The position numbers and the translations under genes are program-made. Below the pieces are notes generated by a model. The model ran no database searches, had not been told where the DNA came from, and saw only the letters and a program-made list of their open reading frames with translations. From contig JAZDJN010000062.1 of NCBI GenBank assembly GCA_043803945.1, positions 1 to 42,837 of the forward strand: a stretch of 42,837 nt of DNA, in the 5' to 3' direction. This DNA is from a bacterium (GTDB lineage Bacteria; Bacteroidota; Ignavibacteria; UBA10030). Each line of letters opens with the position of its first letter. Position 1 is the stretch's first letter. Shown one piece after another: positions 5,841 to 29,531 of the stretch.

Positions 5841-5862
5841 TATTTTATACCTCTTCGTCGAT

Positions 5863-5906: not shown

Positions 5907-5908
5907 TA

Positions 5909-7060: not shown

Positions 7061-7066
7061 TTAAAT

Positions 7067-7162: not shown

Positions 7163-7173
7163 TGAATTCATAA

Positions 7174-7539
7174 TCATATAGAACGGCTGAGAAATGTTAT
7201 AAATCCGGCTGTTTGATTTATGATCGAGACACTGAGAGTGAATGCCTCCTCAAATTCGGATTGTGAGATATATTGCAGATCGAGTGCAACATAGAGTTGA
7301 CTTCTCAATTCTCCGACAGAACCTTTTGCATGATACAGGAAAGCGATGAACTCCTTTTTCGTGTGTCGTTCGTAACCCTCGGCGATATTAGACATCACGG
7401 AAACCGCTGATCGCTGCATCTGATCTTTCAGACCGTAATCGGAAGACAATTTTCCTTTTGCCGTTAATCTATAGATTATCGATGTAAGCTTCCGTGCATC
7501 CTGCCAGACAGGCATATCTTCAAATCGTTTAAACTTCAT
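7174..7539 (-). CDS. Four-helix-bundle protein (23S rRNA intervening-sequence protein family)
   Basis: 121 aa with FEDMPVWQ, LKDQMQRSAVSVMSNIAEGYER and AKGSVGELRSQL family motifs. Confidence 0.93.
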   Translation of the reverse strand: MKFKRFEDMPVWQDARKLTSIIYRLTAKGKLSSDYGLKDQMQRSAVSVMSNIAEGYERHTKKEFIAFLYHAKGSVGELRSQLYVALDLQYISQSEFEEAFTLSVSIINQTAGFITFLSRSI

Positions 7540-7552
7540 TTTGTTCCTTTTT

Positions 7553-7687
7553 ATTATCAGTCTTTCGCAATCTGTTATTCGCTATTAGCATTCTGCTTTT
7601 GTTTTCTGCTATCCGCTATTTGCTATCTGTCATTTTACTTATACGCTATCTGTCATATGCAATCCGTTATTCGTTATCTGCCATTTT
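7553..7687 (-). repeat. Degenerate heptamer array, inverted relative to 7067-7162
   Basis: + strand reads TCTGCTA TCCGCTA TTTGCTA TCTGTCA..., i.e. CAGATAG / CGGATAG / CAAATAG units on the minus strand. Confidence 0.85.
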
Positions 7688-7689
7688 AT

Positions 7690-8202
7690 TTATACCCAGC
7701 AAAGCTCAAAATAACTGCACATCTTACAAAAGCGTCTCGATTTCTTTTCTGGTGCAGATGCGGACTCGACAACTTCTTCGATCTTTTTCAGCACTTCGAT
7801 TATTTCTTCTTCCGTTTGTTCGTTTAACTCTACAGATACCTTTTGTCTTAACTTCGGATAATCGAGTTCTCCTTTCAATCCCGACACTCCTTTTTGTTTG
7901 AGATACCATAAGTAATACAACACCTGCCACCGATGCGCTTCTTCAAGGCTGTCGGACTTCTTCACCTCGTGTAACACACCGTTCTTACTATCGATCCAAT
8001 CAATCACAATTGCGTTGTCAATCTCGATCTGTTTTTCTTTCCGTGCATAGCTTGATTCATCTATGAGCTTACCCAAGAGAACGGTATCAGACGTATGCTC
8101 CATAACCAAACCACGCGAGAATAGCCACAGTTTACGCTTGCACACAAAATAATAATTTAAATGTGTGCCGGATATATTGTGCCTGAAGGTTTCCTTCATC
8201 AT
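7690..8202 (-). CDS. cas4: CRISPR-associated exonuclease Cas4
   Basis: YYFVCKRKLWLF, IDW, HEVKKS, QVLYYL and C-terminal CKMCSYFELC Fe-S cysteines. Confidence 0.97.
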   Translation of the reverse strand: MMKETFRHNISGTHLNYYFVCKRKLWLFSRGLVMEHTSDTVLLGKLIDESSYARKEKQIEIDNAIVIDWIDSKNGVLHEVKKSDSLEEAHRWQVLYYLWYLKQKGVSGLKGELDYPKLRQKVSVELNEQTEEEIIEVLKKIEEVVESASAPEKKSRRFCKMCSYFELCWV

Positions 8203-8394
8203 AGGTTTAGTCAGAAAGAAGGAAACCTTCTACATAAGGTAACACTCTTTTCCAGTAATCTTTCTCTGCCCGCTCATCTTTCAACACCTGCTGCACAAAT
8301 TCTATATAATCCTCGCCCAAATCAGCAAAAGGTTTCCTTCCGCTTGTTAAAGGCTTCCTTCTGTTAGGAATAACCTTAGTTGAAGGAAGCCTTT
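8185..8394. repeat. Cluster of REP-like palindromes overlapping the cas4 start and the RAYT 3' end
   Basis: GAAGGTTTCCTTC 8185-8197 / GAAGGAAACCTTC 8218-8230 (reverse complements); AAAGGTTTCCTTC 8328-8340; AAAGGCTTCCTTC 8349-8361 / GAAGGAAGCCTTT 8382-8394 (reverse complements). Confidence 0.85.
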
Positions 8395-8830
8395 TACCCA
8401 GGTACTCTACAAAGTTCGAAAACTTCCACTCCTCCGGTTCCCGCACTAATCCCGCCCTCACCGGATTCAAATGAATATAACACGCCACGTCCTGCACGGC
8501 ATCTTCCGGAACAGACTTATAACGAAATGGACCCTGAAACAAATGCCCGATATGCCCATACTTTAAATTGTATCGCTTTGCGGCAGATGTCGCCAACGCA
8601 CCCATCATATCCGACAAACAACCGCCCTGTTTCTGCAGAGCAAGGATGTGGTAATGATTCGGCATCAACGCGTACGCTGGCACAAGGACAGAATATTTAA
8701 CGGCAAGTGATTTCATCTTCCTAATAAACGCTTCATAATCCGATGCATCGGCAAAGATACGCTCTTTATCGTTCCCACGGTTATATACATGGTAAAACCG
8801 ATCATCTTCTATTTTTTCTTCTCTGTTCAT
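8207..8830 (-). CDS. REP-associated tyrosine transposase (RAYT / TnpA-REP, Y1 HUH family) inside the cas operon
   Basis: YHVYNRG, HUH motif LMPNHYHIL, GHLFQGPF, catalytic-Tyr motif YIHLNPVRAGLV, WKFSN; flanked by palindromic doublets. Confidence 0.93.
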   Translation of the reverse strand: MNREEKIEDDRFYHVYNRGNDKERIFADASDYEAFIRKMKSLAVKYSVLVPAYALMPNHYHILALQKQGGCLSDMMGALATSAAKRYNLKYGHIGHLFQGPFRYKSVPEDAVQDVACYIHLNPVRAGLVREPEEWKFSNFVEYLGKRLPSTKVIPNRRKPLTSGRKPFADLGEDYIEFVQQVLKDERAEKDYWKRVLPYVEGFLLSD

Positions 8831-8852
8831 ATCTTTTATAGAAGGTGTAGCG

Positions 8853-8900
8853 GAAGGTTACCTTCTGCTTATTCGTGCTTAGTTGAAGGTAACCTTCAAC
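8853..8900. repeat. REP-like inverted doublet between cas7 and the RAYT
   Basis: GAAGGTTACCTTC 8853-8865 (preceded by GTAGCG) and GAAGGTAACCTTC 8885-8897, which extends to the palindrome GTTGAAGGT-A-ACCTTCAAC at 8882-8900. Confidence 0.88.
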
Positions 8901-8927
8901 CGAGGGACGAGAAATTCTTTAGCTATG

Positions 8928-9986
8928 TTATACTTGTCTTTCATAGTCGTATGCCAAAAGCATTTCCTTCAATTTGTTCTCTGCGTCATCCAATGCATTT
9001 GCCGTTCCATGCACACCTTGGATATATCCGTCACAAGGAAGAGCTATGAACAAATCCGTTCCAACTGTATCGTCAATAATAGGAATTGCATGTGGTTTCT
9101 CTGTTTCCTCTGAAAGTTTAGCACGTATTGCGCTTGCTACTTTGTTTGCGTTGTCGCTGATAGCAATAGCAAGCGTTTCCATTAGACTAAACGTGCGTGA
9201 TTGATTACTGGTAATTCTCCAATTAAGAATGCCTTTGGCAAGAGCATTAATAATTTCATTTCTTTTCTTTTTGGGACATATCAGACAACTACCGAAAGCA
9301 TTCTTAGATTCTTTCCAACCATTATCTCGGAGTTCTTTTCCAATATCATCCGTTATTTCACGTTCGTGTTTATTCAATGACACAGAAAAGAGCGTACGTA
9401 TATCTATTGCAATGTCGTACACAAATAGTCCTGCAGCTCTTGTGTTATCTTGAATAAAATTCCTGCGTGTAAGAGATATTTTTTTGTCTTCAAGAAATTT
9501 ATTGATCTCTACTTCTGACAGTTCTTTTCCGTTTGCATCACGCACTTTTACGGGATGAATATCGGGATTGCTGCTGCGATCAAATGTTAAATTCTCTCTT
9601 GCGACACTGCATAAAAGAGGATGTAATGCACGCATAGCGGAGATAGATAATGGGCTTCGTCTCTTAACTGGTGTTTCTCCAGCTTGAGCTCTCATCCAAC
9701 CTCCAAGCAATTGGTCTGTATATTTAGGATCACAAGGTGACCAAGGTTCTCCCTCACCCAAGCCGCCTTTTTCTTTTATTATTTTATTGAAAGTTATCGG
9801 TGCTTGTTGCTCTCCTAACAATTCCAAGATAGAATCTAATGCTGAACGCTTAACTTGTTGACCACTTGAATAAGGAACATACTTCCCAAATTGACTATCA
9901 TAGTATGTCTTTTGTCCTTCTTGGACACAAAACACTGTATGTTCGGCATGTCGAAGCCCGCGAAGATAAATAAATGGTGATCCCAT
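8928..9986 (-). CDS. cas7: Cas7 backbone subunit (Bacteroidota-type variant)
   Basis: 352 aa with PYSSGQQVKRS, DQLLGGWM and KRRSPLSIS, which resemble Cas7 RAMP motifs; position in the operon. Confidence 0.85.
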   Translation of the reverse strand: MGSPFIYLRGLRHAEHTVFCVQEGQKTYYDSQFGKYVPYSSGQQVKRSALDSILELLGEQQAPITFNKIIKEKGGLGEGEPWSPCDPKYTDQLLGGWMRAQAGETPVKRRSPLSISAMRALHPLLCSVARENLTFDRSSNPDIHPVKVRDANGKELSEVEINKFLEDKKISLTRRNFIQDNTRAAGLFVYDIAIDIRTLFSVSLNKHEREITDDIGKELRDNGWKESKNAFGSCLICPKKKRNEIINALAKGILNWRITSNQSRTFSLMETLAIAISDNANKVASAIRAKLSEETEKPHAIPIIDDTVGTDLFIALPCDGYIQGVHGTANALDDAENKLKEMLLAYDYERQV

Positions 9987-10019
9987 GTTGGTTCTCCTTA
10001 TTTAAAGTTGTTTTTACTA

Positions 10020-10316
10020 TCAATTGGGTAATGCATATTTGAAACGCATCAGCGTTACAAAAAGCGGCACATTATCGACTGCAATATTCTCCATTAACTC
10101 ATGAACAAGAGTATTACATACTTCCCCCATCGTTGTTGGCTCTTCTTCCACAAGTTGAGTAAGCCGATCAATCAACTCTTTGCGATTTCGGGAAGACAAT
10201 AGCTCTTTTATTTCGTTATCACGCTTCACAGTTCCCTTCCTTCCTCCTTTTTCATACTTTCGAAACGCTTGAGCGGCTTTTTCTGCTAAACCAAGAAGAT
10301 TTTTGTTATTTAACAT
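10020..10316 (-). CDS. cas11: Probable Cas11 small subunit translated from an internal in-frame start in cas8 (98 aa, MLNNKNLL...)
   Basis: In-frame ATG at 10316 preceded by GGTGATC (10326-10320), complementary to the extended 16S anti-SD. Internal Cas11 translation is established for types I-B, I-C and I-D. Confidence 0.55.
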   Translation of the reverse strand: MLNNKNLLGLAEKAAQAFRKYEKGGRKGTVKRDNEIKELLSSRNRKELIDRLTQLVEEEPTTMGEVCNTLVHELMENIAVDNVPLFVTLMRFKYALPN

Positions 10317-11366
10317 AGCGATCACCCATGTAATGTAAATTGAATAGTTAATTTTAGATTTTTCATCATCCTTAAGTTTTGGCATCTCATTTGAACTGGA
10401 TCTACCAGGCATATATTTCCACAAATCTTTTGGTTCTATAGCTTTTAAACCAATTGTTCCTTGTTCGCATGCACGTGAAAAAGGATATTGAGTTTCATAC
10501 AAAGCAACCATTTGCTTTATGCCCACAGAATCACTCTTTTTAAATATTTTATCATAGAATTCCCAAAACTTATTTACCTCCGGTAAATTAAGATTAATAA
10601 AACCAAGGGTTACGTATTTCTGTTTATCATATATATATCTCGAACTAAAAATAGTAACGTTCTCTTTCGGAAATATGCTCGACAATAAAAACAACATCTT
10701 AATCCAGCTCTGCTGTTTTAGAGCATAGTTAGCTTTTCGTTTTTCGCTGGTTTCTTTTTCTACATATTCATCCAAGAGAAATTTCTTAACTATTTTGTCT
10801 TTATTAAAAGTATGGTCAAGCCAAACACTATTCCATAGATCAATCTCATTTGGTTTTAAATCCAGCACTTTTGAGTTCAAATGTTTTCGATATTCAGACC
10901 AACCTGAATAAATCGTCCAAAGCAACTTTTCATTGTTCATATACCATACTTGTTTCCCCTCTACTTCTATCCCAAAGCCAGCCCCAATCCATGAAGAATA
11001 TATACTTTCTTTGTCCATAGGAAGAGTTAAAGATGATACTTGTCCTGAAGTATCAAAAAGGTCATTAGCAGCCGGGAACCCTATTGCAAAGCTACTATCT
11101 GGAACATCTTCTTCGATTTTTTTATTTAATTTTTCAAGTTTACGTTTTTGCTCATCTTCAAATGTTTTTATTCCCTTTCTTTCTTTAGCAGGAAGTTTCT
11201 GAACAAAAGGAGAGTTAACAATCCATTTAAAATACTTCTTATGGTTATAGAATTCTTCAAAAACTTCTTTTTTAAAGAATAATTCTGCAGATAATCTTTT
11301 ATTTTTCTTTTTATTATATATTTCTAAAAATCGCTGCCCAATAAACGATATGTACATAGCTTTCAC
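10020..11366 (-). CDS. cas8: Probable Cas8 large subunit (divergent, AT-rich)
   Basis: 448-aa Lys-rich protein between cas3 and cas7 with a helical C-terminus; assigned mainly by position. Confidence 0.7.
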   Translation of the reverse strand: MKAMYISFIGQRFLEIYNKKKNKRLSAELFFKKEVFEEFYNHKKYFKWIVNSPFVQKLPAKERKGIKTFEDEQKRKLEKLNKKIEEDVPDSSFAIGFPAANDLFDTSGQVSSLTLPMDKESIYSSWIGAGFGIEVEGKQVWYMNNEKLLWTIYSGWSEYRKHLNSKVLDLKPNEIDLWNSVWLDHTFNKDKIVKKFLLDEYVEKETSEKRKANYALKQQSWIKMLFLLSSIFPKENVTIFSSRYIYDKQKYVTLGFINLNLPEVNKFWEFYDKIFKKSDSVGIKQMVALYETQYPFSRACEQGTIGLKAIEPKDLWKYMPGRSSSNEMPKLKDDEKSKINYSIYITWVIAMLNNKNLLGLAEKAAQAFRKYEKGGRKGTVKRDNEIKELLSSRNRKELIDRLTQLVEEEPTTMGEVCNTLVHELMENIAVDNVPLFVTLMRFKYALPN

Positions 11367-11369
11367 CTT

Positions 11370-13505
11370 TTAGATTACAGTATCAATTTCTTTCCATTCT
11401 AAACCTACCGACGGACTATACAATTCGTCATGGACAATAATTGGGGACGTTCCATATTTTGAATATCCATAATTTGTGAACTTACGGAACCTTGCCGTTC
11501 GTGGAATCGGTATTTCCAGACTGATTCGTTGTTCGCTGTTTCCCTTTTCATATTGCTCTAAATCTGAATATCGAATCGCTGTTGCTGATTCAATGTTCAA
11601 TGCTTCCATTAGAACAGAAGAGGGGAAATGGCAAAGTTCCGTTAAAAGAAACTCATCCCTTTCCCATACTAAATGAGTATTAATGGAAATCTCTTTGAGA
11701 GTTGGAAACACTTCATCAATTATCTTTTGCAAATCACGCTCGTGTAATACTTCGTTATCCGGTAACTGCGCAAAACTTCGTTCTAGCAACTCTTGTGCAT
11801 AGGGCAAACATGCTTTGCTCTCATCAGGCGGTTCGATAACATATACTGGCTTTAATATCCTGTTCCGAACACTCTCCTCGGTTCTACGCCTGTTGATGCG
11901 TCCGAACCGTTGAATGAGACTGTCAAACGGAGCACACTCGGTTATCATCACATCAAAGCTAATGTCCAAGCTTACTTCCACTACTTGCGTTGAAACGACA
12001 ATGCAGGCTTTTGAAGAGCAATCGAATTTTTCCCGAAGTTCTTTTTCTAATTCTGCCCTATCCTGCCGTCGGAATCGGCTATGAAGAAGCATTTGCGGCA
12101 TATCGGGGAAAAGTTCACAGCATTCCTTGAAGCGTTTCTGTGCGGCATCTACTCTATTGCACACGATGAGGACTTTTTTGTTCTCTTGTAGAGCTTGTAG
12201 AATAATGCTCCGTGTTTCATCAAATGAAGAAATCTTATGAACAATGTGTCTATCGAACGTAACAAGCGTATTTTGAGGCAATGACACGGTGTATGTTTGT
12301 TTCTTCCCTCCAAGAAGTTTTAATATTTTCTTTTGCAACACCAACGGCATTGTTGCACTGCCGACATGAACTCGGCAACGCAGTTTTAACAACGCTTTGA
12401 TGATTTCTAAAACCATAGACTGCGCGATCTCGGAGTACGAATGAATTTCATCCAGGATGACATCATTCCCCATAATATCAACAGCAAGCGCTTCGAAACC
12501 ACGCGTTCCACAAATCAATGATGCCAATTGATGAGGTGTTAAGACTTTAATGGCGGCACCGACTTTATCTTGTAAAACTTTTTCTTCATACGATTCGCTT
12601 CCTTTCACTACCAATCTTGACGATGCATGAAGCACTCGTATTTCAGCTTGATTCGGAAGCTGCTGCCGAAATCGTTCGTACATAGCATTGATGGACGCTT
12701 GAAAAGGTAATGTATAAAAGACCCTGCTACTGCAACGGCGCATAAGAAAATCTGTTTTCCCCGATCCCGTTGGTGCAACAACAAGAGTATGCGGTATCTT
12801 ATCGTCGGCAGAAAGAAGGGATAAAGGAAATAGAGTATTCGACCGATTATCAAATGCTGAGAGATCGGGAGTTTGGAATATCGTTGAAATACGGACATTT
12901 GTTTTTTCGTTCAATGCAGAGGCAAAATGGTCTGCCCCAACAAGCACGCCTTTCCATTTCGACCAACCAAGTGATTTTTTTGAGCAATATTCAATAGTAT
13001 ACCGATATGCCCTCAATGCTTCATCTTTCGAAATGCTTCGCGTAGAAATACCAACATCGGACAGAATAGCAAGAGCTACAGACGACCATTCTTCCCAAGG
13101 ATCAACATGCCGTTCAAATATCTCATCGCTTCCTTCTATATTTTCTAAATCCAAGATTCCCTGTTCACGCGCATCCTGGCGAATGGAACGATGATGAGCA
13201 ACGATCATATCAACAAGTGCATTCCAATCTTTTTGCGGGAATAATGGAAGGAATAAAAGTGATGCAATTTCATGCCGGAAAGTAATGCCAAAATTATCGT
13301 TCCTATTATTTTTCAACTTTCGCTGGAAATCCGGATGCGACTTGCCAACATCATGCAAAAGCCCTCCGAGCCGTGCAAGCCTTTTATCCAATCCTGCCGA
13401 TTCGGCAACTCTTTCTGCTACAGAAGCAACATGACGTAAATGATCGGTTAAAAGTGTTCCACCATTGTTCACACTCTTAGCGTATATGTCTTGAAGCGGA
13501 TTCAT
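11370..13505 (-). CDS. cas3: Cas3 HD nuclease-helicase
   Basis: HD domain (LLHDVGK, AHH, GADH), Walker A APTGSGKT, DEIH, SAT, STQVVEVSLDI, QRFGRINR. Confidence 0.97.
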   Translation of the reverse strand: MNPLQDIYAKSVNNGGTLLTDHLRHVASVAERVAESAGLDKRLARLGGLLHDVGKSHPDFQRKLKNNRNDNFGITFRHEIASLLFLPLFPQKDWNALVDMIVAHHRSIRQDAREQGILDLENIEGSDEIFERHVDPWEEWSSVALAILSDVGISTRSISKDEALRAYRYTIEYCSKKSLGWSKWKGVLVGADHFASALNEKTNVRISTIFQTPDLSAFDNRSNTLFPLSLLSADDKIPHTLVVAPTGSGKTDFLMRRCSSRVFYTLPFQASINAMYERFRQQLPNQAEIRVLHASSRLVVKGSESYEEKVLQDKVGAAIKVLTPHQLASLICGTRGFEALAVDIMGNDVILDEIHSYSEIAQSMVLEIIKALLKLRCRVHVGSATMPLVLQKKILKLLGGKKQTYTVSLPQNTLVTFDRHIVHKISSFDETRSIILQALQENKKVLIVCNRVDAAQKRFKECCELFPDMPQMLLHSRFRRQDRAELEKELREKFDCSSKACIVVSTQVVEVSLDISFDVMITECAPFDSLIQRFGRINRRRTEESVRNRILKPVYVIEPPDESKACLPYAQELLERSFAQLPDNEVLHERDLQKIIDEVFPTLKEISINTHLVWERDEFLLTELCHFPSSVLMEALNIESATAIRYSDLEQYEKGNSEQRISLEIPIPRTARFRKFTNYGYSKYGTSPIIVHDELYSPSVGLEWKEIDTVI

Positions 13506-14125
13506 CGAGTAGATATCTGTGATGCTAATGGGTTATTACCAACAATATGAAGCCATCCATACATCGGTTTGCTGTTATCGAAACGATTAAAGCCGACAAT
13601 GAAGGATTGCTTAGTTTTTCCAAAGCGTAATTCAAAGCCGTTAAAACCATTATCCGGTTCGTCAAATTTTTCTTCGTTTATTTTTAAGATGTGTTCGTTT
13701 GTCGGAAATTCGGCAGGCAACAGAACATCTTCATTGCGGCACAAACAAATGTGCTGCTGTATTGCCCGTTCGGCAAATTCAAGTTTGGATAAAGCTATGT
13801 AAAGAATCGGATTCAGCAGAACACCACGTATTAAAATTGACCGTGGCCTATCTATAACAACAATATTCTCTTTCTTTTTAACGGTAATATTTATACCACG
13901 CGGCTGTGTTTGTTCTTGTTGTTTTGATAGTCCGATATAAGTCAAACGATGTCGCACAATTCTTGGATCGTATTTTTTTTGTTCCAGCAATTCTGGGAAC
14001 AGTTTCTTTTCTATTCCTTCAATTATCGAAGGTGTTAGAAAGTTTTGGCTATAGGTTTCACTATCCCTCACAGCTGTCCAAGGTTTAATGAAACCGAATG
14101 GTCCTGAATACTTCACGATATACAT
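13502..14125 (-). CDS. cas5: Cas5 family RAMP
   Basis: N-terminal YSGPFGFIKPW...LTPSIIEG Cas5-like motif; 4-nt overlap with the cas3 start. Confidence 0.75.
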   Translation of the reverse strand: MYIVKYSGPFGFIKPWTAVRDSETYSQNFLTPSIIEGIEKKLFPELLEQKKYDPRIVRHRLTYIGLSKQQEQTQPRGINITVKKKENIVVIDRPRSILIRGVLLNPILYIALSKLEFAERAIQQHICLCRNEDVLLPAEFPTNEHILKINEEKFDEPDNGFNGFELRFGKTKQSFIVGFNRFDNSKPMYGWLHIVGNNPLASQISTR

Positions 14126-14149
14126 TTTTCGTCTCCTTCTGGCATGGGC

Positions 14150-14195
14150 GAAGGTTACCTTCCACTATGTTAAGCTATGCGAGAAGGTAACCTTC
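14150..14195. repeat. REP-like inverted doublet in the cas6-cas5 gap
   Basis: GAAGGTTACCTTC 14150-14162 and GAAGGTAACCTTC 14183-14195, 20 nt apart; identical 13-mers to the pair next to the RAYT. Confidence 0.88.
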
Positions 14196-14203
14196 TGGCA
14201 AAT

Positions 14204-14860
14204 TTAGCAGAGCGCTCCAAAACCGCTTCCTGTTGAATGTCCGACTCCAACTTCCCAAGCAAATGCGACCGCCTCTGGTGTTCCTTCTATCATTACCGGG
14301 CAAACACTTGCTCTATTTTGAATACCTTTAATTGTGACAAGCCGTGTTTTACACTTTTCGTATGTCCTGTCAAAGAATACTTTTATCCCTTTGTTAACTA
14401 TTCCAGCTTTTTCCAATTTTGTTTTGAGCGTTGCCGTCAACACATCATCAACTCCAGAATCAGAAAACAGTAGATGCTTTATTCCTTGACCATCATATTT
14501 TTTTACAAGAACAGGTGTTGCGGTTAAAAATCTTTGATGTTCGCTGAATTTTGGTGTACCTACCATTTGTACATCGGTAATCCTCATACCGCAACAAACG
14601 TTTGGTTCCGAAAGAAGACCACTCATAACTTTTTTTGCCAGAGCCTCATTCCAGCAACTGATGAACCACTTTGCTCCTTTAGGAAAATTCAGCATGTCTT
14701 TTTCTTTTTTCCCTCCCGATAACCAGCTTAGAGAATAAAGACTGATGTCGTCATGTATTTCATTCGGACCAAGCCATTTATGAAATGCACCGATCAAAAA
14801 ATGCTGGTACTCAAAAGGTACAGGTTCAATATTCGGTGTTAAATTAAAATAGAGTCGCAT
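14204..14860 (-). CDS. cas6: Cas6 crRNA-processing endoribonuclease
   Basis: C-terminal Gly-rich loop GVGHSTGSGFG; SLYSLSWL; RBS AGGAG upstream. Confidence 0.96.
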   Translation of the reverse strand: MRLYFNLTPNIEPVPFEYQHFLIGAFHKWLGPNEIHDDISLYSLSWLSGGKKEKDMLNFPKGAKWFISCWNEALAKKVMSGLLSEPNVCCGMRITDVQMVGTPKFSEHQRFLTATPVLVKKYDGQGIKHLLFSDSGVDDVLTATLKTKLEKAGIVNKGIKVFFDRTYEKCKTRLVTIKGIQNRASVCPVMIEGTPEAVAFAWEVGVGHSTGSGFGALC

Positions 14861-15227: not shown

Positions 15228-15473
15228 ACACCGCTTTACATCGAAGTAGAAATATCCACGAACCTCTATCTACCGATGATTCTAACGAGGCTCAAGGGCG
15301 TTATCGGTAAACAACCTACCATCGGACCAGGCGGTCACCATGAGTATACCAGCTATTGTATTCTGGAAACAATGGATGGCGAGATGGAAGGGACATATAT
15401 TATGCAACGCACCGAAGACAACCTCTTTACTGTGAGAATCCCAAAATTCCTCCTCAGAGCACACGCCAACTGA
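15228..15473 (+). pseudogene. apaG: apaG remnant (C-terminal half intact, central part missing)
   Basis: GVIGKQPTIGPGGHHEYTSYCILET...MEGTY...VRIPKFLL is the ApaG C-terminus; the region is far shorter than a ~125-aa ApaG. Confidence 0.75.
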
Positions 15474-15499
15474 TTGACAAGCTTTTGCTCTCCCTCTTC

Positions 15500-15533
15500 A
15501 CCTGCCTTCGCACTTCGTGCTCCGGCAGGCAGG
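15500..15533. repeat. CCTGCC...GGCAGGCAGG palindromic element after apaG
   Basis: ACCTGCCTTCGCACTTCGTGCTCCGGCAGGCAGG forms a nested hairpin (CCTGCC/GGCAGG outer stem, GCAC/GTGC inner stem). Confidence 0.6.
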
Positions 15534-15637
15534 CTCTTCATGCTTTACTCTTCACTATTTCACATTTACAATTCCCCATTTACAATTCTTCTTTTCCTTT
15601 TCAATATTTCCTTTTTCGTCGTACCTTATCCTCCGCA

Positions 15638-16146
15638 ATGAAGCTCTTCTCTCAACACTATGGCGATGGGCCTCCACTGATAATCCTCCATGGATTGTTT
15701 GACTCCTCAGATAATTGGCACACACTCGCACGACGATTCAGCCAGAACTTTCGGGTCTTCACACTCGATCTGCGCAACCATGGCAGGTCTCCTCATTCAG
15801 AAGATATTAATTATGATCTGATGCGAAATGATATTCTTGAGTTTATGGAAGAACAGAGCCTGTCATTGATTCATCTCATGGGACACTCAATTGGAAGATG
15901 AATCTTGATGCCATTTTTCAGAACTATCCTTCGATTAATCGTTCCATTTCAGCTCCGACACCGTTCCCAAAACCAGTATTGTTCATTCGGGGCGGAGAAT
16001 CTGGATATATACTCGATTCCGATCTTGAATCTATCAGGACACTATTCCCGCAAGCCAATGTATTGACGATTCCGAAGGCCGGCCATTGGGTTCACGCCGA
16101 CGCACCGGACGAATTGTATCGCTCAGTACTCCAATTTCTCCTCTAA
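15638..16146 (+). pseudogene. Alpha/beta hydrolase (YbfF-like esterase), split by an internal deletion/frameshift
   Basis: 15638-15901 has LHGLF, DLRNHGRS and GHSIG then stops; 15898-16146 has LFIRGG and AGHWVHAD; total about 170 aa versus about 255 aa expected. Confidence 0.8.
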
Positions 16147-16290
16147 ACTGTTCATTCCTCAAATTCCATAGATTTCTGTGGTAAGTTTCTTTGTGGAATT
16201 TTCTCTTTCAATTTTCACCTTTTTCACGTTTATTAGCCGACAAGAGATTTGTAATAACCAGCATCCCCTTCACACAATGGGAGCATCGCC

Positions 16291-17769: not shown

Positions 17770-19773
17770 ATGGAGCATAGTACAACCGCAAGCAGTAATC
17801 TTCCAGCGAATGCGTACAAAGAATTAAAGGAGGGCGAAGAGTATCGTCCGATTATGGTGCCTGAGCAAACCTATGCAGAGGTGACACCCTGGTCTGTTGT
17901 CTGGGGACTCATCATGGCTGTGCTCTTCACGGCGGCGGCGGCCTATTCCGGATTGAAGATCGGGCAGGTGTTTGAAGCTGCAATTCCGATTGCAATTCTT
18001 GCTGTTGGTGTTTCGAACCTTGCCAAGAAAAAAGGGGCATTGGGAGAGAATGTGATCATTCAATCAATCGGGGCCTGCTCGGGCGTCGTGGTGGCAGGTG
18101 CAATCTTCACCATCCCTGCACTCTACATCCTTGAGCTTCCTATAAGCTTTTTCCAGATGTTTATGGCGTCGGCGCTTGGTGGTTTTCTGGGGATACTCTT
18201 TCTTATCCCCTTCAGAAAATACTTCGTTAAAGATATGCATGGAAAGCTTCCCTTCCCCGAAGGAACGGCAACAACCGAGATTCTCGTTGCTGGCGAGCGG
18301 GGCGGCGATCAGGCAAAGGTTCTCGCTATCAGCGCGCTGATCGGCGGAGTCTTCGATTTCTGTTTCAGCGCCTTCGGTTGGTGGGCCGAGACAATCACGA
18401 CAAGGATGTTTGCCTGGGGACAGACTATAGCCGGCGAAATAAAGATGGTCTTTAAATTCAATGTGTCGGCAATGATTTTCGGCATCGGTTATATTATTGG
18501 ATTGAAGTATGCCGCGATTATTTGCGCCGGTTCCTTCCTTTCCTGGTTTGTGCTGGTCCCTCTTTTTAATGAGATCGGGCAATCTCTTACCTCACCGCTC
18601 GGTGCAACCGCAACAAAGCTGATTTCACAGATGTCACCGGAAGAAATATTCCGCGGGTATGTCCGGCAAATCGGCATTGGGGGTATAGCCATGGCCGGTG
18701 TTGTTGGAATTCTCCGATCGTCAAAAATTATTGCAGGAGCGTTCAAGCTGGCAGCCAAGGAGATCTTCCACCATGAGACCGGGACGGAGACTGAAACTAT
18801 CCGTACTCAAACTGATTTGAGAATGCTCTGGATTGTCACACTGATCATTCTCACTGCTCTTCTGATCTTCGTTTTCTTTTATATCGGCGTTGTCTTCAAT
18901 CTCATCCATGCCATTGTCGGGTTATTAATTGTTCTGGTAATCTCATTTCTCTTTACGACGGTCGCAGCGAATGCTATTGCCATAGTCGGTACCAATCCTG
19001 TTTCCGGTATGACGCTGATGACGCTCATCATTTCATCATTTATCCTGACTTCAGTTGGGCTCAGCGGCAACGAGGGTATCATCAGTGCAATGATTATCGG
19101 AGGCGTCGTCTGCACAGCGTTGTCCGTGGCGGGCAGCTTCATCACTGATCTGAAGATTGGGTACTGGCTTGGATCGACACCGAAGAAACAGGAATCGTGG
19201 AAATTTCTCGGCGTGCTCTTATCAGCGGCGACAGTAGGCGGAGTGATATTGCTGCTCAATGAAGCGTACGGTTTCAAGGGCGACAAGGCAATGGTGGCAC
19301 CGCAGGCAAATGCCATGGCTGCTGTGATCCAGCCGTTGATGTCGAATGTCCCAACACCATGGATCCTGTATATTGCCGGAGCAGTGATTTCTCTTCTTAT
19401 GGTCGTGCTTAAAGTACCACCGCTGGCATTCGCACTCGGGATGTATATACCACAGGAATTGAATACACCTCTTCTCGTTGGCGGGTTTGTTGCTTGGTGG
19501 GTCTCAAACCGGTCGAAGGATGAAACGCTGAACAACGCACGATTTCAGCGCGGAACGCTCATTGCCTCAGGACTCATAGCCGGTGGCGCTCTGCTTGGTG
19601 TTCTCAATGCATTTCTTAAGTTTACCGATCTGCAGCTCTGGGAGTTTGGATACAGCAATTTGTTCCTCACACACTGGGCAGAATCTTCGAACGGTGAGCT
19701 TATGGGACTGGGTATGTTTGCGCTGCTTTTCGTTTATGTCATGTGGGACTCAATGCGCGGTAAACCGGAGTAA
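17770..19773 (+). CDS. OPT-family oligopeptide transporter
   Basis: GLKIG, ENVIIQ, LPFPEG, NPVSG, DLKIGYWLG.TP, APQA motifs; many TM helices; AGGAG RBS. Confidence 0.95.
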   Translation: MEHSTTASSNLPANAYKELKEGEEYRPIMVPEQTYAEVTPWSVVWGLIMAVLFTAAAAYSGLKIGQVFEAAIPIAILAVGVSNLAKKKGALGENVIIQSIGACSGVVVAGAIFTIPALYILELPISFFQMFMASALGGFLGILFLIPFRKYFVKDMHGKLPFPEGTATTEILVAGERGGDQAKVLAISALIGGVFDFCFSAFGWWAETITTRMFAWGQTIAGEIKMVFKFNVSAMIFGIGYIIGLKYAAIICAGSFLSWFVLVPLFNEIGQSLTSPLGATATKLISQMSPEEIFRGYVRQIGIGGIAMAGVVGILRSSKIIAGAFKLAAKEIFHHETGTETETIRTQTDLRMLWIVTLIILTALLIFVFFYIGVVFNLIHAIVGLLIVLVISFLFTTVAANAIAIVGTNPVSGMTLMTLIISSFILTSVGLSGNEGIISAMIIGGVVCTALSVAGSFITDLKIGYWLGSTPKKQESWKFLGVLLSAATVGGVILLLNEAYGFKGDKAMVAPQANAMAAVIQPLMSNVPTPWILYIAGAVISLLMVVLKVPPLAFALGMYIPQELNTPLLVGGFVAWWVSNRSKDETLNNARFQRGTLIASGLIAGGALLGVLNAFLKFTDLQLWEFGYSNLFLTHWAESSNGELMGLGMFALLFVYVMWDSMRGKPE

Positions 19774-19784
19774 GTGCCCACGTG

Positions 19785-19834
19785 AGAAGTCTGTCTTCTC
19801 CCAAAGATCAATCTCTATTAGAAGACAGACTTCT
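19785..19834. repeat. REP-like doublet, family B (AGAAGTCTGTCTTCT-N20-AGAAGACAGACTTCT)
   Basis: Exact 15-nt inverted arms at 19785-19799 and 19820-19834. Confidence 0.88.
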
Positions 19835-19913
19835 TATCATTGTCTTGCCCCATCTTTTCCACGGGGGTCCCTGACAGCCTGGCAAAAAGGAAGTCGGAAG
19901 GGTTTCTAATTTC

Positions 19914-20000
19914 ACAAGGGAGTCAGAAACCACTTCCTGACTCTCTCAGGAATTATGAGGGATTATTTTAACAAGGGGGTCAGGAACCATTTCCTGACTC
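19914..20000 (+). repeat. Repeat-spacer-repeat unit: two 30-nt hairpin direct repeats (family A) around a 27-nt spacer
   Basis: ACAAGGGAGTCAGAAACCACTTCCTGACTC (19914-19943) and ACAAGGGGGTCAGGAACCATTTCCTGACTC (19971-20000), 27/30 identical; spacer 19944-19970. Confidence 0.88.
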
Positions 20001-20043
20001 ATAGACAAGAATCGTTACTCATCACCTCAGGGAGGAGGCAGTT

Positions 20044-20595
20044 ATGGGTTTACGAGGAAGGCAACTAATCTCAAGCACCGACCATCTTTTTTTCGTTACC
20101 ACTACCGTAGTAAATTCCATTCGCATCTTTCAAGAGGATCGTTTCTGCTCTCTCCTGATCCAGAATATCAAGCACTACCAAAAACGGTATCAATTCGAGA
20201 TTTATGGATATGTTATTATGCCTTCTCATTTTCATTGGATCGTTGAAGTTGATCATCGATATGGCACTATCTCAGGAATTATGAGGGATTTGAAAAAATA
20301 TTCCGCGTGGGATATTATGGAGGCAGTAGAGAATGAACAGCGGTTAGACCTTCTCGAACAATTTCGTAATGCAGCAGCGGGATACAAAAACCAGCATCGA
20401 AAATTCTGGATGGATAGATTTGATGATGAAGTGATACACAATGAAGGGATGCTCCGTACCAAATTGGAGTATATTCATTACAATCCTGTAAAGGCGGGTC
20501 TTGTATTAAATCCTGAAGACTATCGCTATTCGAGTACAAGGAATTATATCTGCAATGATCATAGTATTCTTCAGGTGAAAACGGATTGGTGGTAA
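20044..20595 (+). CDS. REP-associated tyrosine transposase (RAYT), second, divergent member
   Basis: FFVTTTV, YVIMPSHFHW (HUH), KFWMDRFDD, LEYIHYNPVKAGLV, YRYSS; strong GGAGGAGG RBS. Confidence 0.93.
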   Translation: MGLRGRQLISSTDHLFFVTTTVVNSIRIFQEDRFCSLLIQNIKHYQKRYQFEIYGYVIMPSHFHWIVEVDHRYGTISGIMRDLKKYSAWDIMEAVENEQRLDLLEQFRNAAAGYKNQHRKFWMDRFDDEVIHNEGMLRTKLEYIHYNPVKAGLVLNPEDYRYSSTRNYICNDHSILQVKTDWW

Positions 20596-20621
20596 CAGAA
20601 ATTTTAGTTTAAAAGAATCTA

Positions 20622-20817
20622 CTGTCAGGGAGTGGTCCCTGACAGCCTGGTTGGAGGTTGGAAGATTCCGACTGCAGAAGTCTGTCTTCTTCAAAGGATT
20701 AACCTCTGTGAGAAGACAGACCTCTAATAAAAAACCTGGCAGCCTGCTTGGTAGGGTCTAACTGCAGAAGTTTGTCTTCTTCCAATGGTCAATCGCTGAT
20801 AGAAGACAGACTTCTAC
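20622..20817. repeat. REP cluster downstream of the second RAYT (one family A hairpin, two family B doublets)
   Basis: CTGTCAGGGAGTGGTCCCTGACAG 20622-20645; doublets at 20676-20725 and 20766-20815, each with a 20-nt loop. Confidence 0.88.
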
Positions 20818-26798: not shown

Positions 26799-26959
26799 TC
26801 AGGAGTACAGGTAATAATTCCTTCCACGAAGAGACACGAATCTTCACGAAGTTTATCTTTGCAGTGTATCATTTCCACTATGAAAATAATACACTGTTTT
26901 AACTTCGTGTAACTTCGTGGATACATAGTGAAGAGGAATCACATTCAAGGAGAATTGTT

Positions 26960-28714
26960 ATGAAGAAGACCTGTCTGCTTCTTGTTATACTCATTGCCTC
27001 GGGCAATGCCCAAACCCAACATCTGTCTCTCAGTGAAAACTTCGACCGGATTACAGCACCGCTTCTGCCCAATGGCTGGAGGACAAGTTCAAACCGTTCT
27101 GCCATGGGAGATTTTATTACCACCTCATCTTCTTCCCGCTCCCAGCCAAACACTCTCATCAGCACAAACGCAACAATTACGCAAACACTTACTTCTCCGG
27201 TGTTCGATTTCACAAATCTGGTGCCGGATAAACTAGAGTTATGGATCTCCCGCTCCAGCACCCACACCGCACCATTGCTCGTTGAAGCTTCTCTGGATAG
27301 CGGACGAACATACGGAATCATCGTAAGCGATACTCTTCAAAACAATGGATCATCGGGGTATCAGCAATTTTCACTGACGCTCCCTGCCACCTTTATCAAT
27401 CAACCGGCAGTATCGTTTCGCTGGCGGCTTATCGGCAACCTGAGCGGAGGAACAACCGGCACCTTTCGAATGGACGATATCACCATCACCATTTCAGCAA
27501 TGAACGACTTCGCTCTCATTTCATTACAAGCGATTCCGTTCTTTCGGCTTAACGGACTTCAGCAACAGATTCTCGATGGCTATAACATCGATGCGACCGT
27601 TAAGAATGTAGGAAGGATCGCCGCTGCTCGATTTGCCGTGCAGTTCTTTCTTGACAAAAACAATAATGGCCGTGCTGACACCGACGAACAATTTGCACAG
27701 CTTGATGCAGGACCTCTGGCAATTGCCGATACAGCAATTATCGAGGCCAGGCTTCAATCACTCACACCCGGTCAGCACCGCTGCATTGCTGTACTTGAGT
27801 ATCCTCCCGATGGGAATTCCTTGAATGATACAGCATCGGTGCTGATCACTGCTGGAGCCGATCCTGGCTCGATCATTGTTAATGAGATTATGTTTGATCC
27901 TTTAGAAGGACAGAATGAATGGATAGAATTCTACAACCGGAGCGGAACAGCGATCGATGTGACTCAATGGAAAATCGCAGAGAATTCTGCAGGAGATCAA
28001 TCTGTATCCCAACTTTCGGTTCAGAGCAACACGATTCATCCCAAAGAATATCTTCTCCTTGCTGCAGACTCGACTATTCTTCTGGCTTTTCCCTATCTCA
28101 GAAATCCAGACAGCTCAATTCATCTGTGTATACGTAACCGGAGCAGCGGATTCAACCTCAACAACAGCGGCGACGACCTCTATCTTCTTGATGCAACAAA
28201 TCAGGTGATCGACCATCTCTCCTATTCACCATCGTGGCATTATCCAGACCTTATTCAGACGCGCGGGATTTCATTGGAGCGTATCAGCCCGGAGATTCAT
28301 TCAACCGAGAAGAGTAATTGGAGTTCCTCGTCATCTTCTCTCGGAGGGACACCGGGAAAGTCCAATAGTATTCTAGCCAGGGCTCTGCCCAGCGCTGCCA
28401 CACTCTCGCTGCATCCCAATCCTTTTTCACCCGACAATGATGGATTTGAAGATCATTGCATCATCCAATATCGCCTTCCACTTAAGACCTCACTGCTGCG
28501 CATCAGAGTCTATGATACACAGGGGCGGCTGATCAGGCGGTTGAGCGAATCCGCATTAAGCGGTTCAACCGGCGAAATTATCTGGGACGGATTTGATGAT
28601 GAGAAACGGCGTGCAAGGATAGGTCCCCATATCATCTTCCTCGAAGCAATCGACAGCCAGGGAGGAATGCTGGCAACAGCAAAGGCAGTGGTTGTGGTGG
28701 CAACGAAGTTCTGA
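26960..28714 (+). CDS. Secreted lamin-tail-domain protein with CARDB-like and C-terminal FlgD/sorting-type Ig domain
   Basis: Signal peptide; IIVNEIMFDP...EWIEFYN, SLERI, GTPG; PNPFSPDNDG...IYD/WDG-type C-terminal domain. Confidence 0.82.
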   Translation: MKKTCLLLVILIASGNAQTQHLSLSENFDRITAPLLPNGWRTSSNRSAMGDFITTSSSSRSQPNTLISTNATITQTLTSPVFDFTNLVPDKLELWISRSSTHTAPLLVEASLDSGRTYGIIVSDTLQNNGSSGYQQFSLTLPATFINQPAVSFRWRLIGNLSGGTTGTFRMDDITITISAMNDFALISLQAIPFFRLNGLQQQILDGYNIDATVKNVGRIAAARFAVQFFLDKNNNGRADTDEQFAQLDAGPLAIADTAIIEARLQSLTPGQHRCIAVLEYPPDGNSLNDTASVLITAGADPGSIIVNEIMFDPLEGQNEWIEFYNRSGTAIDVTQWKIAENSAGDQSVSQLSVQSNTIHPKEYLLLAADSTILLAFPYLRNPDSSIHLCIRNRSSGFNLNNSGDDLYLLDATNQVIDHLSYSPSWHYPDLIQTRGISLERISPEIHSTEKSNWSSSSSSLGGTPGKSNSILARALPSAATLSLHPNPFSPDNDGFEDHCIIQYRLPLKTSLLRIRVYDTQGRLIRRLSESALSGSTGEIIWDGFDDEKRRARIGPHIIFLEAIDSQGGMLATAKAVVVVATKF

Positions 28715-28819
28715 TGAGCAGTGCTACATACACCTGGACAGAGCGAACAAACATCTCTATATTCAGGTAGTTCGATTGAATTCAGTATTTCGATGGACGT
28801 CTGACATGAACATACACTC

Positions 28820-29233
28820 CCTCACCTGAACACCGTTGCCGAAGTGTATCGAACCACAGGAACGATCTGGGAAAATTACTCTCCCGACGCTCAAGAGCCG
28901 GGCCGCAATACCGACGGCAAACTTGTTATGAAAGATTTTGTGGGTTGGAGTGGCATTGGGCCAATCCTTTACTTCATGGAATATGCCGTAGGGATTAAAG
29001 CAAATGCCGACGCTAACGCATTATACTGGCAGCTTGAATCGAAGAAGCGGGTCGGTTGTGAAGGTTACAGGTTCAACGACCATGTCATCTCCCTGATCGC
29101 AGAGAAGTCAGAAAAAAACCATCGGAAGATTTCCATCGAATCGAACGGAGTTTTTCTCTTGCATCTTCGGACAGGGAACATGAGCAAAACCTATTCGATC
29201 CACGAAGGTCGGAATGAATTGATCATCCGGTAA
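28820..29233 (+). pseudogene. C-terminal fragment of a glycoside hydrolase (GH63/trehalase-like)
   Basis: TGTIWENYSPD...DFVGWSG pattern typical of the end of an (alpha/alpha)6 glycosidase; only about 130 aa present. Confidence 0.6.
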
Positions 29234-29531
29234 GCCGATTCTTCACTCGATGACGACTTTGAATGAAGAGCTGTCTTCTGTATATTATCGTCGAGCGCTA
29301 TACCATAGCGAGAAAGTTTGGCGAAATACCCCGTAAATACAGCGAAGAAAATATATGGTAACATTCCAATACTTTAATGATAGGACTGGAGTTATCCCGC
29401 GAGAATACATTGAATCAAAACTAAAAGAATTGCGGGATTAAGGTGTGGAGAGACGATAGCTACTCCTACAAAGAGAACACTGAGGAAGAGCATCTAGAAA
29501 AATCAAATTAATCCTGAGCTAACACCTGAAT

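Follow-up and report, generated by a model that had tools for sequence, protein, structure and literature searches.

A piece of a RAYT gene's own coding sequence between two upstream REP units, probably a scar of local REP-unit amplification

The closest known counterpart of the locus reported here is the E. coli REPtron. In the account of Ton-Hoang et al. 2012 (PMC3333891), the gene of a Y1 HUH enzyme, TnpA-REP, lies between cognate REP hairpins that face in opposite directions, the REP units on the gene side are tandemly repeated and variable, and the enzyme belongs to a family known to cut and join single strands beside REPs; tandem amplification of REP/BIME units in E. coli is described there as well. 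For RAYTs of subclass 2.4, the account of Quentin et al. 2018 (PMC6006769) presents in-frame REPs that reflect an exchange between gene and REP at the loop linking the HUH strand to the next helix, and it also describes atypical, GTAG-less REPs for some RAYT subclasses. Two further systems are similar in form, and one of these comprises CRISPR and neo-CRISPR loci, where palindromic direct repeats of about 30 to 37 nt surround a short unique insert that matches DNA elsewhere. The other comprises the guide RNAs of IS200/IS605 elements (the omega-RNAs of TnpB and IscB), in which a hairpin-bearing element end lies beside a target-matching sequence of about 20 nt.

The locus studied here shares traits with all of these systems. 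It lies in a window of 42,837 nt (the whole stretch of DNA that was analysed) from a genome of 5.54 Mb that is available as a draft of 118 contigs, and its features, in window coordinates, are the following:

19785 to 19834, no strand assigned: "P" element, a 50-nt stem-loop repeat with 15-nt arms and a 20-nt loop, directly 3' of an OPT transporter gene
19855 to 19882, + strand: REP0', a decayed REP that keeps the REP 5' flank, the 3' arm and its flank and lacks the 5' arm and the loop
19907 to 19943, + strand: REP1, a 37-nt repeat copy whose hairpin (19920-19943) has 10 stem positions with one A.C mismatch and a CCAC loop
19944 to 19964, + strand: gene-derived 21-mer, equal to 20270-20290 (24/25 identical over 25 nt from 19940)
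19955 to 20068, + strand: open frame of 37 codons with its ATG in the captured fragment (the gene's Met80 codon), overlapping the RAYT start out of frame
19964 to 20000, + strand: REP2, intact, with a hairpin of 10 pairs and a CCAT loop at 19977-20000 and with both flanks, 5' and 3', typical of the family
20030 to 20038, + strand: Shine-Dalgarno-like purine-rich run, read from the sequence, 5 nt ahead of the RAYT ATG
20044 to 20595, + strand: gene of a RAYT (REP-associated tyrosine transposase), an open reading frame of 552 nt encoding 183 aa
20270 to 20290, + strand: source copy of the 21-mer (25-mer from 20266), at the start of the helix after the HUH strand
20621 to 20650, - strand: REP3, on the downstream side and opposite in orientation to REP1 and REP2; its loop reads CCAC on the - strand, and AGCCTGG follows it on the + strand

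The RAYT protein matches NCBIfam NF047646 with 121.7 bits (cut-off 80) and Pfam Y1_Tnp with 31 bits (cut-off 23), and an alignment that includes the TnpA-REP structure PDB 4ER8 finds its motifs intact, with the HUH motif as H62-F63-H64 and the tyrosine motif as YIHYNP. The gene has REPs in opposite orientation on its two sides, which is the REPtron layout, and the region is a REPtron, that is, a RAYT gene between its own REP hairpins with a rearranged upstream REP cluster. This island adjoins the genes of the OPT transporter and a SpoU methylase. Its left boundary is the "P" element, which belongs to a repeat family distinct from REP, has further copies at 20676-20725 and 20766-20815 and, for one 14-nt arm, 17 exact matches in the genome and 153 with up to two mismatches. 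Besides a paralogue on contig C85, no further fragments of the RAYT gene were found in the genome.

The first-pass annotation had described two 30-nt direct repeats at 19914-19943 and 19971-20000 that enclose a 27-nt spacer and end 43 nt before the RAYT ATG. These coordinates, the distance and the mismatches at 3/30 positions were all reproduced. The direct repeat is longer, however, extending over 37 nt (19907-19943 versus 19964-20000, 32/37 identical or 86%), so that the 27-nt spacer holds for the 30-nt repeats whereas the piece between the 37-nt repeats measures only 20 nt and is wholly gene-derived. REP1 stops exactly at its hairpin foot, without the 3' flank starting with CAT that other family members carry. 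The gaps between REP0', REP1 and REP2 are 24 and 20 nt, and REP0' is composite in its similarity, with 19855-19869 resembling 19967-19981 at 80% and 19866-19882 being identical to 20634-20650. Outside the locus, the REP family has about three copies (C18:6859, a degenerate one at C18:~9610, and C82:11974), and the two on C18 may go back to one duplication given the longer flank that they have in common. No gene-like or duplicated pieces were found in the flanks of these remaining copies, nor was a source found elsewhere in the genome for the segments 19883-19906, 20001-20043 and 19835-19856.

The known systems also differ from this locus. Unlike the E. coli REPs, those of the window have a very low copy number and lack the canonical GTAG 5' of the hairpin foot, with a 5' flank that reads AACAAGGG(N)G in 4/5 copies; GTAG is not a universal REP feature, since atypical REPs are described for some RAYT subclasses in the account of PMC6006769. 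Furthermore, a piece of the RAYT's own coding sequence sits between two REP units in the window, an arrangement of which literature searches and term searches in the main texts of PMC8266576, PMC3333891, PMC3733652 and PMC6006769 yielded no description. A subclass-2.4-like RAYT gene with an in-frame REP is present on contig C7 of the same genome, but the window shows the converse, with gene sequence among REPs and no REP in the gene. No intragenic REP was found in the homologues of the window's RAYT family either, and the spacing from HUH to MRD is 14 to 15 aa, without a loop insertion, in 56/57 loci where both motifs were found. Unlike a CRISPR locus, the window locus has one insert between just two intact repeats, which are imperfect copies of a dispersed REP; a leader and adjacent cas genes are missing, and the insert matches a neighbouring gene in the same orientation. 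A CRISPR array, with at least three near-identical, regularly spaced repeats and spacers of uniform length, is not supported: the locus has two intact repeats (86% over 37 nt) and a decayed one with gaps of 24 and 20 nt, the repeat also occurs singly on C18 and C82, and the neighbours are a transporter and a methylase gene. An IS200/IS605 transposon with a guide RNA is not supported either. The locus does belong to the world of Y1 transposases and has a hairpin next to a matching piece of about 20 nt, but this piece lies between two REPs upstream and not on the 3' side of a transposon end, neither TnpB nor IscB nor another effector gene was found beside the RAYT gene, and no Rfam match reached threshold.

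The identity between the intergenic 21-mer (19944-19964) and 20270-20290, on the same (+) strand and extendable to 24/25 positions (19940-19964 versus 20266-20290), was confirmed, as was the claim that chance is a negligible explanation: about 3e-8 matches are expected, and none of 100 shuffled controls gave any match. A search of both window strands with up to three mismatches found just these two sites, they are the only exact copies in all 118 contigs of the genome, and no exact match was found in IMG/VR viral contigs that could point to a phage or foreign target. As noted before, the source lies inside the RAYT coding sequence at ISGIMRD after the HUH motif (I76-L83, gene nt 227-247), starting 12 residues after H62-F63-H64. 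ISGIMRD is part of the family's most conserved block, which reads ISDIMRDIKK in most of 46 aligned proteins. The gene copy is the original, as it codes for the motif that is most conserved in the family, and sequence comparison establishes on this basis that the intergenic 21-mer derives from the RAYT gene and not the reverse. The left border of the insert is the REP1 hairpin foot, and on the right it meets base 1 of the 37-nt REP2 unit. It also contains TCAGGAA, the core of the REP 5' arm, at 19946-19952, which together with the 3' arm of REP1 (19934-19940) makes an alternative hairpin of 7 bp; this heptamer occurs once in the RAYT gene, at 20272-20278, 2 nt inside the left end of the fragment.

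We then compared the flanks of homologous RAYT genes with their cognate genes in 60 distinct loci, obtained from 65 loci with a match after removal of 5 with identical genes. The longest exact match between flank and own gene was 32 nt in locus L061, 27 nt in L037 and 21 nt in the window; it exceeded 13 nt in none of the remaining 57 loci and in none of the 300 cross-locus controls. By blastn, 4/60 loci (the window, L061, L037 and L051) scored above the best of 180 cross-locus controls (30.2 bits). Inter-REP segments that match the cognate gene, as the earlier annotation had proposed to look for, are thus found at 4/60 loci and in none of the controls. In L037, a tandem duplication of about 106 nt comprises REP, leader and the gene's first 42 nt, in L061 one of about 210 nt comprises the gene's last 34 nt and three REPs, and in L051, nested REP units contain 69 nt that are a diverged copy of the 3' end of the gene. 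The tandem duplications of L037 and L061 are plain ones, with outright head-to-tail copies of one contiguous segment, and L051 is an older nested series; in all three, the fragments come from the gene end next to the REP cluster. More generally, tandem REP clusters are common beside homologous RAYT genes (e.g., L005 and L006). The best homologues of the window's RAYT share 63-64% aa identity with it (in searches of 41 related genomes, of 401 genomes from the class and of JGI metagenome contigs), and a phylum-level search of 401 genomes added no further RAYT locus.

These results bear on the first-pass suggestion that the RAYT had captured a piece of its own gene between REPs in a spacer-like acquisition. 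The piece is indeed gene-derived and lies exactly between REP units, but as a single insert it gives no sign of CRISPR-like acquisition of spacers. Local duplication had been named in advance as speaking against a spacer-like capture, and the three other self-matching loci correspond to that outcome.

The comparisons show the sequence identities, the direction from gene to intergenic region, the exact positions of the junctions and the recurrence of gene fragments at homologous loci. We consider it probable, at roughly 0.6, that the 57-nt unit, made up of REP1 and 20-21 nt of RAYT coding sequence, has no function and was left as a scar when REP units were amplified locally and a piece of the neighbouring RAYT gene was carried along. 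In the likeliest course, a tandem duplication would first have run from the REP 5' edge to gene nt 247 and created the junction of GGGAT(T) with the REP2 flank. The upstream copy would then have lost its leader and gene nt 1-226 through a deletion anchored at the REP1 hairpin foot; alternatively, one complex template switch could have given the same product in a single step. The order of events, the intermediate and the absence of function are what we infer here. Other scars in the upstream cluster are the internally deleted REP0', the stem mismatch of REP1 and the loss of its 3' flank.

The fit of this amplification reading to the window is uneven. As expected for a tandem duplication, the REP part repeats over 37 nt with a 57-nt period, but in the source the trapped piece is not contiguous with the REP, and 269 nt would be missing. 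Since the window fragment is internal to the gene (nt 227-247), unlike those of L037, L061 and L051, one has to invoke either a further deletion or the joining of segments that were not contiguous, and no duplication intermediate was seen at the window locus. REP1 and REP2 differ at 5/37 positions as opposed to 0/21 in the fragment, which is mildly unexpected for simultaneous copying (P = 0.095). Microhomology at the junctions is poor: the left one has ACT followed by a mismatch, the right one 1-2 nt. Two other models, a hairpin-skipping deletion and an unequal crossing-over or slippage that uses the 7 nt of TCAGGAA as homology, did not reproduce the observed product. The placement of TCAGGAA near the fragment's left end has a post hoc probability of about P = 0.011 and hints at a REP-directed process rather than a random breakpoint. 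The RAYT enzyme may have had a part in forming the junctions. If the amplification reading holds, the locus is an ordinary REPtron with an unusual scar, and it advises caution: repeat-spacer-repeat look-alikes near RAYT genes arise by REP-cluster amplification and may hold pieces of the RAYT gene (4/60).

A more direct role of the enzyme is possible, though we think it unlikely. In this case, single-stranded DNA would have been nicked in cis by the RAYT between C and T at the REP foot, and the enzyme would have captured the gene piece and resealed the strand to leave a functionless product that records strand transfer by a RAYT to non-REP DNA, either by extension of a free 3'-OH on the gene as template or by joining in a gene strand cut at a pseudo-REP half-site; the sequence before insertion would have read C19943 followed by T19964. 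The left junction (19943/19944) does fall between C and T, and the REP1 unit likewise starts with T19907 after C19906. According to the accounts in PMC3333891 and PMC8266576, E. coli TnpA-REP cuts between C and T either 5' or 3' of REP and performs strand transfer in vitro, its covalent intermediate can be resolved by any 3'-OH, and a 3'-OH may prime synthesis. Moreover, both catalytic motifs of the window's RAYT are intact, and the gene's sole TCAGGAA occupies nt 3-9 of the fragment, where it can pair with the REP1 3' arm. By hhalign, the start of the 25-nt match (T75) comes right after the in-frame REP of the subclass-2.4-like RAYT of the same genome, a position that the account in PMC6006769 gives as a known REP insertion site in tnpA-REP genes. 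However, the cuts in the gene would fall between A and T and between T and T instead of C and T, and no cut motif between C and T is shared by the duplication junctions of L037, L061 and L051. The GTAG guide of the studied enzymes is absent from the REPs of the locus, so that their rules may not apply, and the uniform HUH-MRD spacing and REP-free genes of the family also count against this reading. The stronger version, that the 57-nt unit records a RAYT reacting in vivo and in cis on its own gene's single-stranded DNA via TCAGGAA as a pseudo-REP half-site, strikes us as doubtful. In this version, 20-21 nt of coding strand would have been joined to the nick between C and T at the REP foot, with the half-site at the boundary of HUH loop and helix, where the in-frame REPs of subclass-2.4 genes lie; alternatively, a REP formerly in the HUH loop may have been copied out along with its 3' flank. 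If true, this would be the first natural footprint of RAYTs moving non-REP DNA and would suggest a route for REPs into and out of RAYT genes. If the reaction was enzyme-catalysed, the defined junctions would also allow oligonucleotide tests of the rules by which a GTAG-less, so far unstudied RAYT lineage cleaves and joins DNA.

It is improbable that the captured fragment serves as a regulator in cis or trans, be it as an anti-Shine-Dalgarno element or attenuator, through the upstream frame 19955-20068, as antisense to codons 76-82, or as a guide. In one RNA fold, that of 19900-20046, the segment 19936-19970 is base-paired to 20008-20042, and the Shine-Dalgarno run within the latter has its partner in 19936-19947. 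Pairing of a 31-nt piece with the leader exceeds that of 99% of shuffled sequences (P = 0.0085). The fragment folds into a hairpin with a T-rich run behind it, and the ATG that it supplies opens 37 codons. But by itself the 21-mer shows no advantage over shuffles in pairing (P = 0.135) and ranks 90th among the 531 21-mers of the gene, and a somewhat longer leader gives a different fold, so that the anti-Shine-Dalgarno pairing is not robust. There is also no reverse-complement copy of the 21-mer in the window, no Rfam family at threshold (just two sub-threshold matches of microRNA models on the hairpins), no promoter-like site on either strand of 19500-20043 and no effector gene at the locus, and any such element is absent from 56/59 other family loci. 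The guide or antisense RNA proposed in the first-pass annotation is not supported, and the leader pairing is weak and varies with the folded construct.

An assembly artefact, with the 57-nt unit absent from the organism's DNA, appears very improbable. The genome is a draft, and contigs from two other runs (with small shares of 0.10 and 0.08) cover 19784-19835, 20125-20282, 20369-20628 and some short bits, but none spans 19859-20117. A length of 21 nt is also a common assembler word size. Still, an artefact would need two chimeric joins and a diverged REP copy with 5/37 differences, both sites of the 21-mer lie in unique context on either side, and similar structures occur in three independent assemblies (L037, L061 and L051).

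The window itself carries a type I CRISPR-Cas locus with cas1 and cas4 13 kb away (the nearest cas gene ends at 14860), so that the "Cas1-independent" nature of the event proposed in the first-pass annotation had to be tested instead of assumed. Resident spacers measure 35-37 nt with the window's repeat (116/116), 37-45 nt in the array on C7 (22/22) and 33-35 nt in that on C56 (23/23), and none of the 116 window-repeat spacers or of the 22 spacers on C7 matches the RAYT locus. That resident Cas1-Cas2 took the REP for a repeat and duplicated it upon integrating a self-derived spacer, so as to form an ectopic "neo-CRISPR", is the least credible reading: the genome does have three cas1 genes, one with cas4 in the window, the 30-nt repeat as first described has the length of the window's CRISPR repeat, and off-target integration with target duplication has been reported (Nivala et al. 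2018, as cited in the text of bioRxiv 10.1101/148544), but the insert of 20 nt (37-nt repeats) or 27 nt (30-nt repeats) lies outside all spacer rulers (33-45 nt), the REP copies are non-identical at 5/37 positions and unlike all three CRISPR repeats of the genome, and the gene pieces in L037, L061 and L051 are contiguous, of 42-85 nt and not spacer-like. As a separate observation, all three cas1 genes of this genome have a RAYT-like gene alongside, by-catch that may outweigh the main finding in value.

The 183-aa protein encoded at 20044-20595 matches Pfam Y1_Tnp and the NCBIfam model 'REP-associated tyrosine transposase' (RAYT; 121.7 bits versus a cut-off of 80), aligns with E. coli TnpA-REP (PDB 4ER8), and has both the HUH motif (H62-F63-H64) and the YIHYNP tyrosine motif. 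Its gene lies in a draft genome (5.54 Mb, 118 contigs, 46.5% G+C) of which the window is one entire contig of 42,837 nt. The locus is laid out like a usual REPtron, that is, a RAYT gene with its own flanking REPs (palindromic hairpin repeats):

Features of the RAYT locus
17770-19773, OPT transporter gene, upstream neighbour
19785-19834, 50-nt stem-loop
19855-19882, decayed REP
19907-19943, REP1
19964-20000, REP2
20044-20595, + strand, RAYT gene
20621-20650, REP3, in opposite orientation by its loop asymmetry
20676-20725, 50-nt stem-loop
20766-20815, 50-nt stem-loop
20814-21647, - strand, SpoU methylase gene, downstream neighbour

The REPs lack a 5' GTAG and form a very low-copy family, with further copies only at C18:6859, C18:~9610 (degenerate) and C82:11974 on other contigs of the genome, all in ordinary intergenic DNA. 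The 50-nt stem-loops (15-nt arms, 20-nt loop) outside the REPs belong to a different, commoner family located at the ends of genes; for one 14-nt arm the genome gives 17 exact matches and 153 at up to 2 mismatches, most of them on contig C16. In a sediment metatranscriptome run, a contig of 263 nt matches the RAYT 3' part and REP3 (20369-20628) with 7 differences, which shows that a close relative was present in that sample and is no proof of transcription.

Between REP1 and REP2 lies an exact, same-strand copy (19944-19964) of 21 nt of the RAYT gene (20270-20290), extending to 24/25 from 19940 and 20266, and the coordinates and counts of the first-pass annotation proved right. Chance alone would give ~3e-8 such matches; no further copy was found in the window on either strand at up to 3 mismatches (0/100 shuffles matched), nor any exact copy beyond these two in the whole genome. 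No contig of the sequencing runs found reaches over 19859-20117, the stretch around the intergenic copy. The direct repeat measures 37 nt (32/37 identical), so that the 20 nt between the repeat units are wholly gene sequence, and the last T of the 21-mer is common to the fragment and the REP2 unit. REP1 stops exactly at the hairpin foot, without the 3' flank (CAT...) common to REP2 and the two C18 copies. Since the gene copy codes for I76 to L83 inside ISDIMRDIKK, the block that is best conserved in this RAYT family (46 aligned proteins), it is the original from which the intergenic copy derives.

Homologous RAYT loci were collected from 41 related genomes, JGI metagenome contigs and 401 genomes of the class. 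Of 65 loci, five (L027, L028, L030, L033 and L041) were dropped because their gene was identical to another, leaving 60, two of which are the window and its paralogue on contig C85; several have flanks cut short by the end of their contig. They share the layout of the window locus, each with a REP sequence of its own.

Matches between RAYT flanks and the locus's own gene (longest exact match in 400-nt flanks; blastn score in 600-nt flanks)
Window (L001): 21 nt; 42.1 bits
L037: 27 nt; 75.8 bits
L061: 32 nt; 63.9 bits
L051: 12 nt; 42.1 bits
Other loci: at most 13 nt; at most 28.2 bits
Cross-locus controls: at most 13 nt (all 300); at most 30.2 bits (180)

Because the window, L037, L061 and L051 (the last by its blastn score) stand above the controls, own-gene fragments among flanking REPs are real and recurrent (4/60). 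Self-matching segments of the sort that the first-pass annotation had suggested looking for at homologous loci are found, and this part of its interpretation is supported, while its CRISPR-like and guide readings are not. The three other loci come from other organisms than the window. L037 (1395-1540) holds a tandem duplication of ~106 nt that takes in the REP, the leader and 42 nt of the gene's 5' end; the tandem duplication of L061 (2001-2260), of ~210 nt, takes in three REPs together with the final 34 nt of the gene. In L051, a series of nested REP units downstream of 2043 includes a diverged copy of the gene 3' end, and its successive units have differing start points after one identical REP-proximal octamer, a pattern suggestive of nested deletions anchored at the REP. 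Gene fragments among REPs may already be on record in Additional files S6 and S10 of PMC6006769 and in the REPtron lists of PMC3733652.

We favour, with a probability of roughly 0.6, the reading that the window unit is a rearrangement scar of the L037/L061/L051 kind plus one further step, which implies no function. A tandem duplication from the REP 5' edge to gene nt 247 would first have produced the order REP, leader, gene(1-247), REP, leader, gene, equivalent to the state of L037. The nested units of L051 suggest deletions of a type that, anchored at the foot of REP1, would then have left REP1 and the final 20-21 nt; a template switch in one step would lead to the same result. In E. coli, REP/BIME units are known to be amplified in tandem (PMC3333891). 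What fits less well is that the fragment is internal to the gene, whereas in all three other loci (3/3) it is the gene end adjoining the REP cluster, that no intermediate was seen, and that REP1 and REP2 differ at 5/37 positions but the fragment and its source at 0/21 (P = 0.095). So read, the locus is a REPtron whose rearrangement scar mimics a repeat-spacer-repeat, and it belongs to a GTAG-less lineage that has not been studied.

It is less probable, but kept alive by several details that also fit the favoured reading less neatly, that the RAYT enzyme itself captured the gene fragment between the REPs. The left junction of the fragment lies between C and T, and before insertion the sequence would likewise have read C|T; the studied TnpA-REP enzymes cut at this dinucleotide and are also able to join strands in vitro (PMC8266576, PMC3333891); both gene-side cuts, however, would not be at such a site, and L037, L061 and L051 have no common cut motif. 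The REP 5'-arm core TCAGGAA occurs at a single site in the gene, 2 nt inside the fragment's left end (~P = 0.011, post hoc), and the upstream TCAGGAA can form a 7-bp hairpin with the 3' arm of REP1, which a predicted DNA fold favours over the mismatched REP1 hairpin. Finally, a second RAYT on contig C7 (26512-27225) carries an in-frame REP doublet directly after its HUH motif (26935-27000; GTAG-tagged; L048, L070), which over 48 nt is 94% identical to a copy lying shortly downstream, at 27252-27299. In the hhalign alignment, T75 of the window RAYT is paired with the residue that follows this insert, so that the start of the 25-nt match coincides with it in position. Relatives of the C7 RAYT in other genera have similar, variable inserts at the same loop; in two of the seven loci examined (of 11) the insert matches the flanking REPs of its own locus, as it does in L075. 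This is the REP-inside-tnpA-REP feature known from subclass 2.4 (PMC6006769). Against capture, the loop is uninserted in the window's family at 56/57 loci with both motifs. That the unit records, as a natural footprint, strand transfer by the RAYT onto its own gene seems rather improbable.

Little was found for an RNA role of the fragment as guide, antisense or regulator. A 31-nt piece is predicted to pair with the ribosome-binding region (P = 0.0085), and an ATG in the fragment begins a putative reading frame of 37 codons that runs across the RAYT start; for the 21-mer itself, however, this pairing has P = 0.135, and the predicted fold shifts with construct length and is not robust. Moreover, the 21-mer has no reverse-complement partner in the window, no Rfam family reaches threshold, neither strand shows a promoter-like site upstream and no effector gene lies near the RAYT.

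Ectopic integration by Cas1-Cas2, which has been described (Nivala et al. 2018, as cited in 10.1101/148544), had to be weighed because window 31-14860 is a complete-looking type I CRISPR-Cas locus:

Features of the CRISPR-Cas locus
31-5476, CRISPR array, 83 repeats of 30 nt
5909-7060, - strand, cas1
7174-7539, 23S-rRNA-IVP-like gene
7690-8202, cas4
8207-8830, - strand, RAYT-like gene (Pfam Y1_Tnp; NCBIfam below cut-off)
11370-13505, cas3
14204-14860, cas6

Ectopic integration is not supported: spacers of the three resident systems measure 35-37, 37-45 and 33-35 nt without exception against an insert of 20 or 27 nt, the REP is unlike all three resident repeats, and the 138 spacers compared, of which 116 go with the window's repeat and 22 come from the C7 array, include no match to the RAYT locus. 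Contig C48 holds 35 more copies of the window's CRISPR repeat, and one 36-nt spacer occurs twice in the window array (4682-4717 and 5213-5248). Beyond the locus, an alpha/beta-hydrolase gene within 15356-16150 looks truncated or frameshifted, its ORF (15356-15901) covering only profile positions 1-79 of 245 and stopping just past the GHS motif.

The RAYT-like gene at 8207-8830 sits inside the CRISPR operon, with cas4 on one side, effector genes on the other and short GAAGG..CCTTC hairpins at both ends. All three cas1 genes of the genome have such a gene within ~1.2 kb: besides this one, the C7 RAYT adjoins an RT-Cas1 fusion (27355-29409), and one on contig C56 (~3250-3700) adjoins cas1 at 2284-3153. 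Among 23 Cas1 loci (L081-L103; each +/-1.5 kb; from 16 of the 41 related genomes), 6 have a Y1/RAYT-like match, and two other genera (L082, L090) have a gene 81% identical to the C56 type next to cas1. Searches by term of two papers on CRISPR neighbourhoods turned up no mention of this adjacency, which may stem from hot spots of insertion or from a genuine link.
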